Assembly (NCBI GenBank): GCA_016432465.1
Contig: CP066690.1
Coordinates: forward strand, 683,666 to 747,665
Length of the DNA stretch: 64,000 nt
DNA from: Candidatus Sungiibacteriota bacterium
GTDB lineage: Bacteria; Patescibacteriota; Minisyncoccia; Sungbacterales; HO2-52-23
Reading direction: 5' to 3'
In this document: one piece after another, positions 11,645 to 47,072 of the stretch
Position numbering within the stretch: position 1 is the stretch's first letter
Layout: each line of letters opens with the position of its first letter
Program-made: the position numbers and the translations under genes
Notes under the pieces: generated by a model
What the model saw: only the letters and a program-made list of their open reading frames with translations
What the model was told of the DNA's origin: nothing
Databases searched by the model: none

Positions 11645-11763
11645 GTTGTTCTATTGACTTTTAAAATAAATTATGCTATGATTAGAATAATTAGTCCCTA
11701 ACCCGGTCGATTTTTGGTGGGGGGGCTAAAGCTAACTATTAAGTAAAAATAAATAAAAACAAA

Positions 11764-12900
11764 ATGGACAAAAAAGTAATAATTGGAATTATTGTTTTAG
11801 TGATTTTGGTGGCCGGCTACTTTATATTAAAAAGTCCGGGCGAAGTCACCACCGGACCCGTTAAAATCGGGTTTATCGGACCCCTTACCGGGGATGCAGC
11901 TACTTATGGGGAGCCATTGAAAAATATGATTGGGTTGGCAGTTGGAGAGATTAATGATCAAGGCGGGATAAACGGCCGCAAACTAGAAGTAGTTTACGAA
12001 GACGGTAAATGCAGCGGTCCTTCTGCTGCATCGGCCATGCAAAAGTTGGTCAATGTAGACAAGGTGAAAATAGTTATTGGAGGTTTTTGCTCAAGTGAGT
12101 CGCTAGCCGCCCAACCCATTGCCGCACAAAATAAGGTTTTTCTGTTTTCTGCAGGATCAAGTAGCCCGGATCTAACCAACATTAGTAAGTTTTTTGTAAG
12201 AAACTATCCGAGCGACGCTACACAAGGAACCGTTCTTGCCGATGTTGCCTACAACCAAGAAGGATGGAGGAAAACCGCCTTTATACAAGAACAGCTTGAT
12301 TACCCCTTGGGTATTTATAAGACCTTTGCGGCTCAGTTTACAAAGCTGGGCGGAACTGTTGTTAAAGAAGAGTTTCCAACAGCTACAACTGATTTCCGTT
12401 CACACCTGACTAAACTGCGCGGTCAAAATCCAGATGCTTTGTTTATTGATACGCAAACTGCCGCTGCCGCTGATAGAATTATGAAGCAGGTACAGGAGTT
12501 GAAGTGGAAACCCCGTATACTTCTGTCGGATGCTGTAAGCGGTGACCCTTCAACTATAAGTAAATATGCTCAACTGTTGGAAGGAGCTCTGGCTGCAGAA
12601 TTTGGTGTTGATTCCTCAAATCCGAAGTTTAAAAGCATGATAGCATCGTATAGACAAGTTTATGGGGCAGAACCTCCTTATCAAAGCTATGCGCAAACAG
12701 AGTATGATGCTGTCTATATGATACGTGACGCTATTGCTGCGGTTGGCTATGACGGAAAAAAGGTTGCAGAGTGGACGCGCAGAGTTAAGAACTGGCCCGG
12801 TGCTTCTGGAATGGTTACTATTGGAGATAATGGTGATAGGGTTGGCGGACACGTGCCTAAAATTATTAGAAACGGAAAAGTGGAGATACGTACTAAGTAG
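11764..12900 (+). CDS. livK: branched-chain amino acid ABC transporter substrate-binding protein (LivK/LivJ family)
   Basis: Type 1 periplasmic binding fold with an N-terminal anchor. Promoter TTGACT-17-TATGAT at 11655-11683. Confidence 0.8.
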   Translation: MDKKVIIGIIVLVILVAGYFILKSPGEVTTGPVKIGFIGPLTGDAATYGEPLKNMIGLAVGEINDQGGINGRKLEVVYEDGKCSGPSAASAMQKLVNVDKVKIVIGGFCSSESLAAQPIAAQNKVFLFSAGSSSPDLTNISKFFVRNYPSDATQGTVLADVAYNQEGWRKTAFIQEQLDYPLGIYKTFAAQFTKLGGTVVKEEFPTATTDFRSHLTKLRGQNPDALFIDTQTAAAADRIMKQVQELKWKPRILLSDAVSGDPSTISKYAQLLEGALAAEFGVDSSNPKFKSMIASYRQVYGAEPPYQSYAQTEYDAVYMIRDAIAAVGYDGKKVAEWTRRVKNWPGASGMVTIGDNGDRVGGHVPKIIRNGKVEIRTK

Positions 12901-12923
12901 GCGAACACTAAATTTCAAAAACA

Positions 12924-12960
12924 AAAGAGCCCCGCTTGAAGCAGGGCTCTTTTGTTTTCT
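12924..12960 (+). terminator. rho-independent terminator or attenuator after livK
   Basis: AGAGCCCcGCTT..AGCaGGGCTCT hairpin followed by TTTTGTTTT. Confidence 0.55.
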
Positions 12961-12990
12961 TGGGAAAGAAATTACGCTATAATTCATTTT

Positions 12991-13857
12991 ATGAATATCC
13001 TTCCGCAACTCATCCTCAATAGTGTTATTGCCGGAGCAATTTATACCTTAGTTGCCTTAGGATTTAATTTAAGTTTTGGCGCCGCCAGATTTTTTAACCT
13101 TGCCCACGGTACGGTAGCTGTGGCCGGAGGATATGTGGTTCTTTTTTTAATGAAGTGGCTTCAGGTGGACCCTGTGCTAAGCGTTATTTCCGGCGTAGTC
13201 TCTGCCGGGTTTATTGGATACGGTCTTTTTCAGTTGGTTTATGCGCCGCTTCGCGAACACAAGGCCTCTAATCTCGTTTTGCTCGTTGCTTCTTTGGGCG
13301 CTTTTATTGCGCTTCAAGCGATACTGGCCATGCTTTTTTCCTCACAGTTTCAGACACTCTATCAGGGTTCTCTTGTCCCCACAACCTATGCAATTTTGGG
13401 AGGCGTTATCACTCAAGTTCAGCTTCTTACTTTGGGCTCGGCCTTTTTGATTACCTTGGGTCTGGCTCTTGTTTTAAACATGACGGTTTTTGGAAAAGCG
13501 GTCAGGGCAGTGAGCGACGATGAGGAGGTGGCCAAGATTGTTGGTATTAACACCCGTAAAATAATCGGCCGCGTATTTTTTATGGCTTCGGCCATCGCGG
13601 GGCTCGGCGGAATTTTAATTGGTTTTGATACGGGCCTTGAGCCCACCACCGGTCTTCCCCTGCTTCTTAAGGGGGTGATTGCATCCATTATTGGGGGTAT
13701 TGGCAACGTTTACGGCGGTGTGCTTGGCGCTTTTCTTTTGGGTTTTGTGGAAAATTTTGGCATCTGGAAAATTTCCGGAGAATGGAAAGACGCTATCGCT
13801 TTTACCCTTCTGATTATTTTTCTCATATTTAGGCCGAATGGAATAATCAGAAGGTGA
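12991..13857 (+). CDS. livH: branched-chain amino acid ABC transporter permease LivH
   Basis: Polytopic permease with the conserved LivH family signature region. Confidence 0.8.
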   Translation: MNILPQLILNSVIAGAIYTLVALGFNLSFGAARFFNLAHGTVAVAGGYVVLFLMKWLQVDPVLSVISGVVSAGFIGYGLFQLVYAPLREHKASNLVLLVASLGAFIALQAILAMLFSSQFQTLYQGSLVPTTYAILGGVITQVQLLTLGSAFLITLGLALVLNMTVFGKAVRAVSDDEEVAKIVGINTRKIIGRVFFMASAIAGLGGILIGFDTGLEPTTGLPLLLKGVIASIIGGIGNVYGGVLGAFLLGFVENFGIWKISGEWKDAIAFTLLIIFLIFRPNGIIRR

Positions 13858-13881
13858 ATTAGGATTTAAGAATTATGATTT

Positions 13882-14265
13882 ATGAATGAGAAAATCAGGG
13901 ATTTTAAGGATCTATACGCTTGGCAAGAGGCGCATAAACTTGTTGTCATGGTTTACAAAATAACGGAAAAGTTCCCGAAATCCGAGGTGTTTGGTTTGAC
14001 AAATCAAATGCGGAGGTCGGCTATTTCAGTAACTTCTAATATCGCCGAGGGGTTTGGAAGGCAAGGTTACAAAGAAAAAGTTCAGTTTTATTATCTTGCG
14101 CAGGGATCTCTTATTGAACTGAAAAACCAGCTTATCGCTGCGAAGGATGTAGGTTATTTGACTGACAAAGATTTTGCAGGACTGGTAGAACAGGCAAACC
14201 TTGCTCATAAAATACTACAGGGATTGATTACTAAATCTAAACACCTCTTAAACCATGATTCCTGA
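13882..14265 (+). CDS. four-helix-bundle protein of the 23S rRNA intervening-sequence protein family (TIGR02436-like)
   Basis: Conserved blocks YAWQEAHKL, RRSAISVTSNIAEGFGR and LAQGSLIEL. It is flanked by roughly 23-bp imperfect inverted repeats. Confidence 0.8.
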   Translation: MNEKIRDFKDLYAWQEAHKLVVMVYKITEKFPKSEVFGLTNQMRRSAISVTSNIAEGFGRQGYKEKVQFYYLAQGSLIELKNQLIAAKDVGYLTDKDFAGLVEQANLAHKILQGLITKSKHLLNHDS

Positions 14266-14323
14266 ATCATTCTTAATTCCTAAATCTTAAATCATAAATC
14301 TTAAGTCATAGATCATCTCTGTT

Positions 14324-15190
14324 ATGGAATATTTAATTCATCTGGCAATTTTATTCAGCATCTACGCGATGCTTGGTATCTCCTTGAACCTTGTGGTTGG
14401 ATTCACCGGCCTTTTATCGGTGGCCCAAGCCGCGTTTTTTGGCATTGGCGCCTATACCACCGCGATTTTGATGACCAGTTTGGGTGTTAATTTTTTTGTA
14501 TCGGTAGCGGCAGCAGTGTTTTTGACCGCGCTTATTAGTTTTCTTATAGGGTTTGTTTTGAGTAAATTTTCCGGAGATTATTATGCCTTGGCTTCTTTGG
14601 GTTTTAACGTTATTGCAGTGAGCGTGTTTCTTAACTGGCAAAGTCTAACTCGGGGTCCCTTGGGAATTCCCGGAATTTCACGGCCTGAATTTTTGGGCTT
14701 TCCTTTTTTTTCTAATACTGCCTTTTTGGTCTTGGCGCTGGCGGGTTTATTGATTGTTTATCTTGCCTCGCGTCTTATTGTGAACTCCTCTTTTGGCCGC
14801 GTGCTAAAAGCCATACGCGAGGATGAATCAGCCATCCAAATTTTTGGATACAAGACTCTTTATTATAAACTAACGATATTTGTTATCGGCGCAATTTTTG
14901 CGGCTCTGGGCGGTTCGCTTTTTGCTTCCTACATTACTTTTATTGACCCCTCCAGCTTTGTTCTATTTGAGTCCATATTTATAATGGCGATTATAATTTT
15001 GGGAGGACTTGCCAATTTGGAAGGTTCGGTACTAGGCGCTCTTTTTTTGATTTTGCTTCCAGAAATTTTACGCTTTGTAGGGTTCCCTATTGATATCGCA
15101 GCCCAGATGCGTCAACTCGTCTATGGATTGTTGTTAATTCTTTTGATGCTTTATCGGCCGCAGGGCTTACGCGGCGAATTTAAATTATGA
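14324..15190 (+). CDS. livM: branched-chain amino acid ABC transporter permease LivM
   Basis: Polytopic permease downstream of livH. Confidence 0.8.
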   Translation: MEYLIHLAILFSIYAMLGISLNLVVGFTGLLSVAQAAFFGIGAYTTAILMTSLGVNFFVSVAAAVFLTALISFLIGFVLSKFSGDYYALASLGFNVIAVSVFLNWQSLTRGPLGIPGISRPEFLGFPFFSNTAFLVLALAGLLIVYLASRLIVNSSFGRVLKAIREDESAIQIFGYKTLYYKLTIFVIGAIFAALGGSLFASYITFIDPSSFVLFESIFIMAIIILGGLANLEGSVLGALFLILLPEILRFVGFPIDIAAQMRQLVYGLLLILLMLYRPQGLRGEFKL

Positions 15191-15918
15191 TTCTTGAAAC
15201 TAAAAACTTAACCAAAAATTTTGGAGGCGTGCGGGCGGTTGCCGGTCTCTATCTTGGTTTTGAGCGTGGTAAAATAACAGGTCTTATTGGTCCCAACGGA
15301 TCAGGCAAAACAACTTTAGTTAATCTTCTTAGCGGTATGATACCGGCTGATAGGGGTCTGGTGGTTATCAGCGAAAAAGTAAAACTTAGCACCGTAAAGC
15401 CGTACGAGGTTCTGACCTATGGCCTTACCCGCACTTTTCAGGATGTGCGGCTGTTCAATCAAATGCCGGTTTTGGATAATATCCTTGTGGTGCTCACCGA
15501 GAGAAATGTTTTTGGTGCTCTTTTTGAAAAACACAGCGCATATCATTTTAAAAAAGCCGAAGAGGTTTTAAGGATGGTGGGACTTTGGGAGAAGCGGCAG
15601 GAGCTTGCGGCCAACCTATCGTATGGACAGAGAAAACTTCTTGAAATTGCGCGGGCTCTGGCTACAGATGCCGATATTCTTCTTTTAGATGAGCCATTTG
15701 CCGGTCTTTTCCCGGAAATGGTGAAGGTGGTGGTCTCGGTGGTCAAAGACCTAAGGGCTAAAGGAAAGACCGTTATCCTTATAGAGCATAATATGGAATT
15801 AATTAGGGAACTTTCCGATTTTATTGTAGTTTTGGATAGCGGTGAGTTGCTGGCCAAGGGGAAACCGGAGGACGTTTTATCACAGAAAAAAGTTATTGAG
15901 GCTTATTTGGGAGAATAA
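15187..15918 (+). CDS. livG: branched-chain amino acid ABC transporter ATP-binding protein LivG
   Basis: Walker A GPNGSGKTT, ABC signature LSYGQRK, Walker B LLLDEP. Confidence 0.85.
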   Translation: MILETKNLTKNFGGVRAVAGLYLGFERGKITGLIGPNGSGKTTLVNLLSGMIPADRGLVVISEKVKLSTVKPYEVLTYGLTRTFQDVRLFNQMPVLDNILVVLTERNVFGALFEKHSAYHFKKAEEVLRMVGLWEKRQELAANLSYGQRKLLEIARALATDADILLLDEPFAGLFPEMVKVVVSVVKDLRAKGKTVILIEHNMELIRELSDFIVVLDSGELLAKGKPEDVLSQKKVIEAYLGE

Positions 15919-15987
15919 AGTTTTAGTTATAATTGACAAGTAAACATTTTTAAATTATAATATATATTATTCTGCAAATATTTTATC

Positions 15988-17058
15988 ATGAAAAACCTAT
16001 ACAAACCAAATTTAAGAAAAATTATCCTAGGGTTAGTCATTCTTATAATCTTAGTTGGGGCTGCTTACCTAACTTTCATCGATAAACAATCATCGAACGC
16101 AATAACCGTCGGAGTGATCACAGATCTGACTGGACCAGCAGCTTATTGGGGTGAGTCAACACGCGAAGGTGCTCAGTTAGCGGTCAACCAACTTCAAGAG
16201 AGCGGCATTGGTGTTCAGGTCGTATTTGAAGACTATCAATTGGAGGCAGCAAGGGCGGTTGGTGCCGCCCAAAAGCTCGTTGCCGTTGACAAGGTTGATG
16301 CGGTTTATGCCGAATTTAATCCAGCGGCGATTTCAGTCGGGTCCTTTCTGAAGGACAAGAATATTTTATATGTTTACGACGCTGCAGTCGTATCACCACT
16401 TAGGGGTTTGCCCTATGCGTATAAGACTTATTTGGATTACAAGGGTGGGTGTAAGGCAATTGCCAAGAAGTTTAAGGAAACGGGAGTAAATAAAATAGGA
16501 GTCTTAAAAGTCAACCTTGAATTCGGTGAGCTTTGTCTAGAGGGAGTTAAAGAAATTTATGGGAACCCTGTAATTTCTGAGGGGTATAACTTAGGTGACA
16601 CTGATTTTCGAACCCAACTTCTTAAAATAAAAGGTAATGGTGCTAATGCAGTTATAAATGTTGGGTTTGAGGGGGATACTTACAATACTCTTAAGACTAT
16701 TCGGGATTTTCAATATAAAATGTTATATGGGACTGTTGATGATACCATCACCGATAAGGTTAAAAAGGATTTTACGTCTGAATTAAAAGGCGGGTTTACT
16801 TTCGGGTTTAGAGACGTTGATCCGGTCTTCAGGGCCAAGCTAAAAGCAAAACTCCAAGATAAAACGTTGGCAACCGAGTATGCGGCCGCCCTTGCTTATA
16901 CCCACATTAGGCAGATAACTGAAGCACTGCATCAATGCAACAAAGACCTTTCTTGCGTAATAAAGAAACTTGATGCGGCCAGGCCGGACCCAACTATTGG
17001 TTTTGAGAGATTTGATAAACACATCGGAGTTCTTGATATGTCCATCAGGAGTTATTGA
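15988..17058 (+). CDS. second Liv-type substrate-binding protein (type 1 periplasmic binding fold, N-terminal anchor)
   Basis: Own promoter TTGACA-17-TATAAT at 15935-15963. Confidence 0.7.
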   Translation: MKNLYKPNLRKIILGLVILIILVGAAYLTFIDKQSSNAITVGVITDLTGPAAYWGESTREGAQLAVNQLQESGIGVQVVFEDYQLEAARAVGAAQKLVAVDKVDAVYAEFNPAAISVGSFLKDKNILYVYDAAVVSPLRGLPYAYKTYLDYKGGCKAIAKKFKETGVNKIGVLKVNLEFGELCLEGVKEIYGNPVISEGYNLGDTDFRTQLLKIKGNGANAVINVGFEGDTYNTLKTIRDFQYKMLYGTVDDTITDKVKKDFTSELKGGFTFGFRDVDPVFRAKLKAKLQDKTLATEYAAALAYTHIRQITEALHQCNKDLSCVIKKLDAARPDPTIGFERFDKHIGVLDMSIRSY

Positions 17059-17789
17059 CAACAATGAAAAGAGAACTACTTTTGCAGTTAGTGGGCACAT
17101 CGGTTCATTACGGCGGCGTAAGGGCCCTGGATAGTGTGGATATTTTTATTGACGAAGGGGAGATTGTGGCTCTTATGGGGCCCAATGGCGCCGGCAAATC
17201 AACGGTGCTCAAAGCGATTTTTGGATTGGCCCCGATTCATTCCGGAAAAATCCTCTGGCACGAAAAAGAGTTGGCCCCGCGCTCGCACGAGGTTGTTAAA
17301 TTAGGTATCGCTTTTGTACCGCAGGGAAGAAGGGTTTTTAGTCATCTGACTGTGGAGGAAAATCTTGAAATGGGCGGATTTTTGATTAGAGAAAAAGAAA
17401 GATTAAGGGCCCGTATGCAAGAGGTCATGGAAACTTTTCCGGTGTTGGCTCAAAAATGGAGTATCAAATCAGGCGCTCTCTCCGGCGGCCAGCAACAGAT
17501 GCTGGCTCTAGGTCGGGGATTGATGACTGATCCCAAAGTCTTGCTTCTGGACGAGCCCTCTTTGGGCCTTGCGCCCAAAATTGTCAAAGAAGTTTTTGCT
17601 AAAATCAAAGAAATCAACGAAAAACACAAAACCGCCATTATGGTGGTGGAGCACAATATAAAATCGCTTCTTGAGATTGCAGACCGCGCTTATGTATTGG
17701 ATAAAGGGAAAATTGTAGCCAAAGACACATCGCAAAAACTTTTGGAAAGTGATGTTTTGGAGAAGGTATTTATGGGGGAAACAGCTTGA
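17055..17789 (+). CDS. livF: branched-chain amino acid ABC transporter ATP-binding protein LivF
   Basis: Walker A GPNGAGKST, signature LSGGQQQ, Walker B LLLDEP. Confidence 0.85.
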   Translation: MTTMKRELLLQLVGTSVHYGGVRALDSVDIFIDEGEIVALMGPNGAGKSTVLKAIFGLAPIHSGKILWHEKELAPRSHEVVKLGIAFVPQGRRVFSHLTVEENLEMGGFLIREKERLRARMQEVMETFPVLAQKWSIKSGALSGGQQQMLALGRGLMTDPKVLLLDEPSLGLAPKIVKEVFAKIKEINEKHKTAIMVVEHNIKSLLEIADRAYVLDKGKIVAKDTSQKLLESDVLEKVFMGETA

Positions 17790-32553: not shown

Positions 32554-32686
32554 TGTAGTCCGTCAACCTTTTAAGTTGTTGTTTGCATTATTTTCTCCGG
32601 CATGCTATACTGTATATATAGCTTAGTATTAAAACATATTTAGGTCTTAGATATCTACTTTTCGTTGATGTTGAAAGGCCATTCAT

Positions 32687-32743
32687 CCCACACATAACTT
32701 GCACAGGGCATTTGTGCAAAGCACGGTGCAAGTTATGTGTGGG
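32687..32743. repeat. perfect 18-bp inverted repeat (CCCACACATAACTTGCAC ... GTGCAAGTTATGTGTGGG) with a 21-nt centre, flanked by ATTCAT direct repeats. MITE-like palindromic element or hairpin
   Basis: Read directly from sequence. It sits in a 490-nt intergenic region. Confidence 0.55.
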
Positions 32744-33046
32744 ATTCATCCTCCCAACTTTTTGCATCGATAGTTTCGGCTTATTTGCAAGCGGGCGAGT
32801 GAAAAGCAAACTTGTTTGCTTTTCCGAGCGAGTGCTGCAAATATAGGAGAAATTACCCTATATTTTTAAGATAAGACGCCAGAGGTATACGAAATCCTAC
32901 GGCACGTAGATACTTCGCTGCAAAAAGTTGGGAGGACAAGGTTTTAAGAAGAGCAAGGTCGTTACATAATTAGCTTTTAGCTTACAGCTTATAGCTTTCA
33001 GGATAATCCTAGAAGCTAATTCCTAAAAGCTAGAAGCTCGTCGAAA

Positions 33047-33244
33047 GTGGCTTTTCAAGATCAAAGAGGTGGATTTCAGGATGATCGTCCTAAGTACGAC
33101 ATCACCTGTTCCAAGTGCGGAGCAGCCTCTACAGTACCCTTCCCGCCAACTGCGGGACGCGATGTCTACTGTAAGGACTGTTTCCGTGAGATGAGACCGC
33201 CCCGTCGTGACTTTCACGGCGGTGGAGGATTCCGACCTCGATAA
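33047..33244 (+). CDS. small zinc-ribbon protein (CxxC-x17-CxxC)
   Basis: CSKC...CKDC. Confidence 0.5.
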   Translation: MAFQDQRGGFQDDRPKYDITCSKCGAASTVPFPPTAGRDVYCKDCFREMRPPRRDFHGGGGFRPR

Positions 33245-46367: not shown

Positions 46368-46431
46368 AGTAAAGGTGTCACATGACGCAGACCAGATACT
46401 CTTCTCTAATTCGCGCGAATAAGCGAATAGT
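46368..46431 (+). repeat. exact 64-bp direct repeat, copy 1 (agtaaaggtgtcacatgacgcagaccagatactcttctctaattcgcgcgaataagcgaatag)
   Basis: Identical to 46970-47033. Confidence 0.8.
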
Positions 46432-46456
46432 GTAAAAGAAATATAAAAGAGATGTC

Positions 46457-46960
46457 ATGGGGCATGAGGATATGAAATACTTAACTGGACAACAAGAAAA
46501 AGAAGCGATTCGATGGATGAATAAAGCGGCAGAAGTTGCCAAAAAGGCTTTATGCCTGAAGGCAAAATGTGGAAGCGTAATTGTAAATGACGGAGAAATT
46601 ATCGGAGAAGGTTATAACGCACCGCCATTAGATAGGGAAGAAAATCGGATGTGCGATAAAGAAGTTGGTGTGGGTAAGGATAAATATGATCGAACATGCT
46701 GTATGCATGCTGAATGGCGAGCGATAATGGATGCGTTGAAAAGAAGCCCAGAAAAGTTGGAAAGATCAAAGTTGTATTTCACGAGAGTAGATGAAAACGG
46801 TCAGATTAAGAAATCAGGGAAGCCATATTGTACGACATGTAGTCGAATGGCGCTTGATTCAGAAATAGAGAAATTTGTTTTATGGCACGAAGATGGCATC
46901 TGCGAATATCCGACTGACGAATACGATAGATTATCTTATCAATATAATCCCGTGGGTTAG
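46457..46960 (+). CDS. cytidine/deoxycytidylate deaminase-family protein (dCMP deaminase/ComEB-like)
   Basis: CMHAE zinc motif, PYCTTC (PCxxC) and GYNAPP. AT-richer than the flanks. Confidence 0.7.
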   Translation: MGHEDMKYLTGQQEKEAIRWMNKAAEVAKKALCLKAKCGSVIVNDGEIIGEGYNAPPLDREENRMCDKEVGVGKDKYDRTCCMHAEWRAIMDALKRSPEKLERSKLYFTRVDENGQIKKSGKPYCTTCSRMALDSEIEKFVLWHEDGICEYPTDEYDRLSYQYNPVG

Positions 46961-46969
46961 GTAATAAGC

Positions 46970-47033
46970 AGTAAAGGTGTCACATGACGCAGACCAGATA
47001 CTCTTCTCTAATTCGCGCGAATAAGCGAATAGG
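46970..47033 (+). repeat. exact 64-bp direct repeat, copy 2
   Basis: Identical to 46368-46431. Confidence 0.8.
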
Positions 47034-47072
47034 GAATAGGCGAATAGTGGGAAAAATGTATAAAAAGAGGGT

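Follow-up and report, generated by a model that had tools for sequence, protein, structure and literature searches.

Between livH and livM of a liv-type ABC transporter operon, in a metagenome-assembled genome of Candidatus Sungiibacteriota (Patescibacteria/CPR), lies a cassette in which a four-helix-bundle gene of the TIGR02436/PF05635 family is enclosed by two complementary arrays of heptamers. The site is empty in most relatives and is occupied in others by several very divergent types of the same element, while cassettes of the same type, as judged by both ORF and heptamer family, are found at unrelated operon junctions. From one cassette to another the arms vary in sequence and yet stay complementary. 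Taken as a whole, our favoured explanation, which we hold to be somewhat better than even, is that of a promoterless cassette of the intervening sequence (IVS) type, gained and lost, co-transcribed with liv, and whose stem would act as an RNase III site, a translational gate or both. Its parts differ in strength: the anatomy together with the gain and loss is very probable, and cleavage of the stem by RNase III, which is argued by analogy, has about an even chance.

Results

The cassette and its host operon

The window (the whole 64-kb stretch of DNA that was analysed) contains the following features at the liv locus, which is present in identical form in four Logan assemblies.

11764-17789, + strand: liv-type ABC transporter host operon, from ORF and domain calls
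11764-12900, + strand: SBP gene
12952-13857, + strand: livH-type permease gene, PF02653 (BPD_transp_2), E 1e-36
13858-14323, + strand: whole inserted cassette, 466 bp, filling the spacer from the livH stop to the livM ATG
13859-13886, + strand: 5' arm, four tandem heptamers (TTAGGAT TTAAGAA TTATGAT TTATGAA)
13882-14265, + strand: TIGR02436/PF05635 four-helix-bundle gene (IVP), 127 aa, from profiles and AlphaFold
14265-14317, + strand: 3' arm, five to seven reverse-complement heptamers (nTCnTAA), from the IVP stop codon
13843-14325, + strand: predicted long-range RNA stem, from MFE and centroid folds and inverted repeats
14324-15190, + strand: livM-type permease gene, PF02653 (BPD_transp_2), E 3.8e-44
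15187-15918, + strand: ATPase gene
15988-17058, + strand: second SBP gene
17055-17789, + strand: second ATPase gene

The cassette has the same orientation as the liv operon and leaves almost nothing of the spacer uncovered. The TGA stop of livH (13855-13857) adjoins the 5' arm, and the ATG of livM (14324) lies 6 nt past the last arm base in the outermost pairing register. For livH itself, a junction alignment with relatives places the first ATG that fits the homologues at 12991. A promoter scan of the operon gave promoter-like sites at 11654-11682 and 15933-15961; inside the cassette, the promoter and terminator scan gave nothing exceeding chance. Upstream sequences carry a Shine-Dalgarno-like motif for just 5 of 43 long ORFs; the IVP ORF and livM are not among these.

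The IVP gene is present in one copy in the window. Rfam found no rRNA in these 64 kb and, on the cassette, no meaningful family either at the gathering cutoff or at E <= 1. A scan of the window for the RNase III (rnc) signature motif gave no match, and the genes neighbouring the cassette include no transposase, recombinase or reverse transcriptase (RT).

Heptamer arms and predicted stem

Two period-7 arrays were delimited by TRF and a repeat search, at 13855-13887 (4.7 copies) and at 14271-14316 (about 5 copies). Both run into the gene that they flank. The start codon of IVP sits in the last heptamer of the 5' arm (TTATGAA), in an ATG register common to the homologues, and on the other side heptamer-like sequence begins within the last IVP codons, from about 14246. 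The imperfect inverted repeat that had been described at 13858-13881 and 14300-14322 is real, but its extent was understated, both halves being parts of these longer arrays.

Since both arms are repeat arrays, several pairing registers are possible. They include 13856-13889 with 14267-14300 (34 nt, 82%), 13863-13885 with 14292-14314 (23 nt, 83%) and 13852-13898 with 14272-14318 (47 nt, 74%). Overall the arms, 34-47 nt long, can pair over about 30-45 bp with 74-86% complementarity, in an AT-rich stem. With up to one mismatch, three consecutive TTANGAN units occur six times in the 64 kb, each time in one of the two arms and on opposite strands between them; the chance expectation is 0.04, and none of 100 shuffles reached six matches. 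The energy of the flank duplex departs from that of shuffled sequences by z = -5.2.

Folding of 13835-14345 gave -131.3 kcal/mol (z = -3.67), and the terminal stem was present in both the MFE and the centroid structure. In this prediction, one strand of the stem consists of the end of livH and the 5' arm, the other of the 3' arm and what follows it as far as the livM AUG, and the IVP ORF lies in a loop of about 400 nt. The earlier suggestion that the flanks could form a long stem around the ORF is in line with these folds and with the inverted repeats.

Elsewhere in the window, at 32970-33040, a heptamer hairpin without ORF was observed.

The IVP protein

Family membership is clear. The 13882-14265 product scores 125.5 bits against PF05635 (23S_rRNA_IVP, E 1.3e-36, cutoff 33.8) and 119.9 bits against TIGR02436 (cutoff 24), in agreement with the first identification of a TIGR02436-like four-helix-bundle gene. 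It has the family motif G..R...S...N..EG, given in PMC3936711, and in a 36-sequence alignment R45, S49, N53, E56 and G57 are invariant. The AlphaFold model (pLDDT 92.8) consists of four helices and has the XCC0516 fold (2GSC: TM 0.85-0.98, rmsd 0.6-1.8 Å, 38% identity); with the Avd structures 4DWL and 8UB7 the TM is about 0.75, at 12% identity. A dN/dS of 0.05-0.07, obtained with saturated dS, indicates strong purifying selection. PADLOC defence families gave no match at E <= 0.01, and no IVP homologue was found in the phage genomes searched.

XCC0516 (PDB 2GSC) and BT_0352 (2RLD), pentamers labelled as 'S23 ribosomal protein family', share family and fold with the window protein (profile E 8.7e-25). 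They are structural-genomics entries without known function, and the pentameric state is one described for these entries. The IVP protein probably forms a pentameric barrel that binds nucleic acids, in the service of the element and not of the transporter. The idea of a pentamer reading five heptamers found no support, as the arrays amount to about 3-3.5 units by a strict measure.

The livH–livM junction among relatives

For comparison we took 80 loci from metagenomes, with LivM proteins 65-77% identical to that of the window; 72 of the loci contain both gene ends. The spacer between livH and livM is 0-11 nt in 58 of these 72, and exactly 1 nt in 40, so that in the 58 operons the site is empty and the junction coupled. 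The cassette is indeed an insertion with respect to most relatives, as had been proposed. It is not a unique one: about 15% of the LivM relatives, Wolfebacteria included, carry a TIGR02436 cassette at this junction. Nine of the 72 have a spacer of 417-464 nt with a TIGR02436 ORF, and in four further, truncated contigs such an ORF lies directly 5' of livM. In an HMM scan of the 80 LivM-centred loci, 12 TIGR02436 ORFs were detected, 12/12 at livH–livM and none at another junction. A conserved orthologue without flanking repeats in many relatives, the pattern that the earlier note had named as speaking against an insertion, is not what this sample shows, since most sites are empty and the cassettes are armed.

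Outside the insert, the alignment of filled with empty junctions is exact to the base, and it shows no target-site duplication. Traces of former occupation may be seen in three loci. In L101, complementary heptamer arms are kept around a 181-nt remnant devoid of ORF, and in L154 and L095 short spacers hold remnants of heptamer-like (7-8 nt) repeats. On a neighbour-joining (NJ) tree of LivM, occupied and empty sites are interleaved.

The proteins encoded at livH–livM are 29-83% identical to the window protein, as compared with 65-77% for LivM. At least five very divergent types of cassette occur there, each with its own heptamer arms (units TTAnGAT, AAAGTTA, TTACGGA/GTTAACG, GATAAAG and GAGTTAG; locus L113 encodes a divergent TIGR02436 protein). 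The nearest homologues of the window protein detected by tblastn (83%, 73% and 71% identity, a Wolfebacteria genome among them) are also located at livH–livM, and the occupied junctions are spread over several phyla. Repeated insertion need not explain all of this spread, part of which could stem from an old cassette that was inherited vertically and then lost in places. Judged from these sequences, the junction is recurrently or anciently occupied, with cassettes that were lost, replaced or re-inserted.

Homologues at other junctions

A second sample consisted of 80 genome loci of the closest relatives (43-69% identity), mostly from Patescibacteria. The same layout was found with other units, for example AGTATTT, GTAGGTA, CTAGAAG, AGTGAAC and CTAGGGG, and among the 78 loci measured, period 7 came out best in 54 of the upstream flanks and in 57 of the downstream ones. 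Flank complementarity had a median score of 32, versus 15 for 427 control ORFs of the same loci, and exceeded the 95th percentile of the controls in 64 of 77 loci (p = 8e-32). When arms were compared across loci, in 21 of 79 cases the 5' arm was matched best by the 3' arm of its own cassette, for an expectation of 1. Similarity between arms followed protein identity (Mantel rho 0.29, p = 0.001).

Arm limits were set by local complement alignment; RNAduplex was discarded, as its duplexes extend over the entire sequence by way of large interior loops. By this measure the core arm has a median length of 27.5 nt, begins 5 nt past the upstream stop and ends at the IVP ATG, while the second core arm extends from the IVP stop to 9 nt before the downstream start.

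Same-strand ORFs were present within 200 nt on both sides in 65 of 81 homologues, on one side in 13 and on neither side in 3. No conserved rRNA motif was found in about 170 loci scanned. The statement that the gene usually lies inside 23S intervening sequences does not apply to this clade, given those 65 homologues located between co-directional protein genes and the absence of rRNA motifs from the loci scanned. Further copies, which the earlier note had thought worth seeking, do exist: cassettes 74% identical and with the same TTAnGAT-type arms occupy the secD–secF junction and a site in a T4SS operon, and none was found in rRNA. By Pfam assignment of the neighbours, other junctions were rpsG–fusA, ftsZ–trxB, murE-like–mutM and acyl-CoA-ligase–livH-type permease. 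Plasmids of cyanobacteria also carry copies with the same kind of arrays, for example five GGAGTCA units with TGACTCC in Nostoc punctiforme.

Stems that are selected as sense RNA are expected to bear the signature of an excess of G:U over A:C. The stems of 70 loci contained 394 columns without Watson-Crick pairing, of which 62 were G:U on the sense strand and 72 were A:C, so this excess is not seen in these stems, and selection at the RNA level is neither supported nor excluded by the count. The outcome does go against a constraint that acts purely on RNA. Without G:U enrichment, complementarity may be generated or kept at the DNA level. The mismatches may also arise simply because units differ from each other at the two variable heptamer positions.

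Alternative explanations

This last result bears on an explanation in which the insert is a mobile element acting at the DNA level. The arrays would then be the terminal inverted repeats of a non-autonomous insertion and the RNA stem a by-product, complementarity being made or kept on DNA, for instance by templated synthesis or gene conversion. Such an origin is compatible with our favoured explanation, and it would account well for the clean presence/absence polymorphism at livH–livM, for arms and ORF being inherited together, for stems without G:U over A:C excess (62 vs 72), and for the existence of ORF-less remnants and of the ORF-less hairpin at 32970-33040. However, there is neither a transposase or recombinase nearby nor a target-site duplication, and the hallmarks of a transposon or MITE (conserved terminal inverted repeats, duplication, transposase) were found neither at the locus nor between cassettes. 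The arm sequences are wholly different between cassette types, which leaves no conserved end sequence for an enzyme to recognise, although a transposition enzyme could conceivably act in trans. Moreover, co-orientation with the host operon (65/81 on both sides) and the exact stop-to-start fit point to constraints at the transcript and translation level. We consider a purely DNA-level element possible but rather unlikely. A different view is that of a resident accessory gene of the liv operon, vertically inherited and acting in the expression of the transporter, with repeats that are no more than an intercistronic stabiliser or coupling hairpin. It would fit the purifying selection on the protein and the placement of all 12 TIGR02436 ORFs of the 80 LivM-centred loci at livH–livM, as well as the closest homologues (70-83% identity) being at this junction in other CPR lineages, Wolfebacteria among them. 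Yet the gene is missing from 81% of related operons, where junctions are tightly coupled, and the junction proteins range from 29 to 83% identity to the window protein versus 65-77% for LivM. Moreover, secD–secF and the T4SS operon harbour cassettes 74% identical and of the same arm type, and the family occurs at many unrelated junctions and inside cas operons (PMC3936711). We regard the resident gene as improbable.

The two remaining explanations are weaker still. That the protein is the Avd component of a diversity-generating retroelement (DGR) is suggested by a weak, sub-cutoff match to bAvd (PF22296, E 1.4e-6), by another weak one to PHROG 3206, 'Avd protein of DGR', and by the TM of about 0.75 with 4DWL and 8UB7. 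But the NCBIfam Avd equivalog NF033474 scores 25.3 against a cutoff of 80, identity is 12% to Avd versus 38% to XCC0516, and the gene is surrounded by liv genes and not by a reverse transcriptase. At this locus the sub-cutoff scores and the lack of a nearby RT effectively refute a DGR, which we take to be extremely improbable. Chance repeats of low complexity around an ordinary small gene might be evoked, given the AT richness of the region and the frequency of short repeats in two copies. Six pattern matches where 0.04 are expected, and the recurrence of the architecture with other units in most of about 80 homologues, speak against chance; the pattern count and the flank complementarity relative to controls refute it, and its probability is close to nil.

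Discussion

Relation to known elements

Besides Coxiella burnetii, intervening sequences of 23S rRNA with an S23p/IVP ORF are found in Leptospira, Xanthomonas and Brucella. That of C. burnetii is 428 nt long, lies in helix 45 of 23S rRNA and has a 28-bp terminal stem, in the middle of which RNase III cuts were mapped; two to three tandem GACAGAT and one degenerate copy stand just before the S23p ATG, and its patchy distribution suggests horizontal spread (PMC4990558). The liv cassette resembles it by the homologous four-helix-bundle ORF placed in the loop of a terminal inverted-repeat stem, by tandem heptamers in the stem right before the ATG (here four TTAnGAn), by its similar size (466 nt) and by its patchy distribution. 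That the stem mimics an IVS stem, as was first proposed, agrees with this common layout with an IVS excised by RNase III (PMC4990558). The differences concern the host, which is here a livH stop followed by a livM start and not an rRNA helix, and the ORF, intact and under purifying selection here, whereas the Coxiella S23p is decaying and apparently unexpressed. RNase III cleavage was demonstrated for the Coxiella IVS, while the liv cassette is known from its sequence alone. Complementary termini enclosing the insert and heptamers of the Coxiella type are both present, but the location in 23S helix 25 or 45 is not, and for this reason the liv cassette is not a 23S IVS. In surveys of CPR rRNA insertions, IVP ORFs were reported within insertions of both 16S and 23S (bioRxiv 2024.02.27.582315).

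The heptamers also recall the STRRs of cyanobacteria. STRR hairpins between hupS and hupL were proposed to stabilise the transcript or to couple translation (PMC2670836), and an STRR inside the RNase P RNA gene is attributed to Vioque (1997, as cited elsewhere). The resemblance lies in tandem 7-bp units that form hairpins between co-transcribed genes or in structured RNA genes. By its tandem 7-bp units between co-transcribed genes the liv insert does qualify as an STRR-type hairpin; however, its heptamers enclose an ORF and its host is a Patescibacterium, whereas STRRs were described without ORF and from heterocystous cyanobacteria. We infer that STRRs and heptamer-armed cassettes are the same kind of element. 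The open-access literature searched contained no link between STRR and TIGR02436, and no heptamer repeats tied to the TIGR02436 family outside Coxiella.

Two other systems share the protein. In DGRs, Avd forms a barrel of five subunits with a positive charge, which binds the RT as well as a structured RNA element (bioRxiv 10.1101/2023.10.23.563531). It is, like IVP, a homologous four-helix bundle (bAvd, 4DWL/8UB7), but the liv locus has no RT and no TR/VR, and the match is below cutoff, at 12% identity. In Pleurocapsa PCC 7327, a 23S_rRNA_IVP gene located between cmr3 and cmr2 was called 'cas-associated' (PMC3936711), and 23S_rRNA_IVP is among listed cas-associated genes (PMC10910872). As at liv, a TIGR02436 gene is there wedged between two genes of one operon. 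These reports understood it as a functional association with CRISPR, whereas what we observe suggests that operon junctions are invaded generically.

A model for the liv cassette

As nothing inside the cassette exceeds chance as a promoter or terminator, and as the family is nearly always co-oriented with its host operon, we infer that the liv mRNA includes the cassette. In this transcript the arms would form a stem of about 30-45 bp with imperfect pairing, the base of which would bring the livH stop beside the livM AUG. By analogy with known hairpins, the stem probably serves as an RNase III site or as a gate for translational coupling, or in both ways. A double-stranded stem of at least 30 bp is long enough for RNase III, which would cut it as in the Coxiella 23S IVS and release the IVP message. 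On this view the liv mRNA may be split, as the earlier note had suggested. Alternatively or in addition, the stem may work as a long-range gate that is opened by ribosomes terminating at livH. Initiation would then take place at IVP and next at livM, and the coupling that an insertion otherwise destroys would be preserved. The rarity of Shine-Dalgarno motifs, their absence at IVP and livM, the IVP AUG within the 5' arm and the livM AUG at the stem base are all compatible with such a gate.

A broader reading joins several proposals, and as a joint statement we judge it unlikely. TIGR02436 operon cassettes, ORF-containing rRNA IVSs and ORF-less STRR-like hairpins would form one widespread class of heptamer-armed insertion elements that specifically colonise sites tolerating a hairpin, namely stop–start junctions of coupled genes and helices of structural RNAs. 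These elements would have an Avd-like pentamer as a factor of their own, which might bind to the heptamer stem and help it to be processed, protected or copied. The Avd of DGRs would be a domesticated derivative, and the recurrent occupation of livH–livM by five or more divergent types would result from a true mechanism of targeting or replacement and not from ancestry.

Implications

To our knowledge, rRNA intervening sequences and their 'S23p' ORFs have been without explanation since about 1990, and the STRR heptamers of cyanobacteria likewise. The module made of a heptamer stem and a four-helix-bundle gene is seen here to live mainly in ordinary operons, and not solely in rRNA genes. It fits exactly from stop to start and is gained, lost and replaced, while its protein is strongly conserved. 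More than the single locus, the comparative pattern is of interest, with its precise fit, its recurrent occupation by divergent cassettes and its arms co-varying with the ORF. The element becomes testable in a simple mRNA context. Some caution is also called for with guilt by association, as the presence of 23S_rRNA_IVP among CRISPR-associated genes may merely reflect junction invasion, and an origin is suggested for the Avd of DGRs. Finally, the liv cassette points to a natural device by which a translationally coupled operon may take up a foreign gene and stay coupled, in organisms where Shine-Dalgarno sequences are largely missing.

Possible cassette footprints and multiple cassettes per genome

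In several relatives, the spacer between livH and livM holds repeats and no gene. At locus L101, a related liv operon, the spacer (1068-1251) is 181 nt long and carries complementary AAAGTTCAT.../...ACTTGAT arms, without an ORF. The corresponding spacers of L154 and L095 measure 42-44 nt and contain heptamer-like repeats (7-8 nt), and that of L090 is 64 nt long. The ORF-less spacers of L101, L154 and L095 look like decayed cassettes, or footprints of lost ones.

More than one TIGR02436 cassette per genome was found in several genomes (L167; L023, L026; L052/L067/L072), those of L167 lying at 580-969 and 2223-2594 of the locus. Two cassettes sit within one T4SS operon, one ahead of prgI and the other ahead of a VirB4-like gene, and one Uhrbacteria MAG has three, on separate contigs and each with a different heptamer unit.

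Other repeats and signals in the window

Besides the cassette arms, the 64 kb contain a single period-7 array, a hairpin without ORF, which folds at -31 kcal/mol (z = -3.5):

32970-33040, heptamer hairpin, units TTAGCTT TTAGCTT ACAGCTT ATAGCTT TCAGGAT / TAGAAGC TAATTCC TAAAAGC TAGAAGC

A small CxxC...CxxC ORF (about 33047-33242) lies directly downstream. The hairpin may be a ‘solo’ relative of the STRR repeats, the heptamer hairpins of cyanobacteria described as ORF-less, or a leftover of cassette arms.

The non-coding stretch at 32640-32940 is strongly structured:

32685-32745, hairpin with 28-nt arms (89%)
32749-32770 / 32915-32936, long-range stem of 22 nt (95%)

Apart from generic hairpin matches, no Rfam family matched this stretch, which is a candidate non-coding RNA without annotation.

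Two direct copies of a sequence some 60 nt long (aaaggtgtcacatgacgcagaccagatactcttctctaattcgcgcgaataagcgaata) lie at 46373-46432 and 46973-47035, on either side of one gene:

46457-46960, deaminase-like ORF, 167 aa

A period-8 array, GCGAATAG, comes after the second of these copies. The arrangement may reflect a promoter or leader duplication, or be a gene cassette of another kind.

Within the liv gene string, a perfect sigma-70 consensus (TTGACA-17-TATAAT, 15933-15961) stands immediately upstream of the second binding-protein gene (start 15988), and its sequence suggests an internal promoter. Because a GGAG/GAGG-type motif precedes only 5 of the 43 ORFs of at least 200 aa in the window, translation initiation in the source genome appears to proceed largely without Shine-Dalgarno sequences.

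Arrays in other lineages

Three Bacteroidota homologues (L079, L082 and L083, Flavobacteria-type loci) have period-8 arrays (e.g. ACCTTAGT) on the downstream side only, with no clear upstream array found in these loci; this is a variant architecture. On cyanobacterial plasmids (L172-L175: Nostoc PCC 7120, N. punctiforme, Stanieria), heptamer arrays (GGAGTCA x5 / TGACTCC; CCTCTGC x4) flank the TIGR02436 genes, some of which adjoin transposase genes. These plasmid arrays may be a link between the classical STRR repeats of cyanobacteria and the TIGR02436 family.
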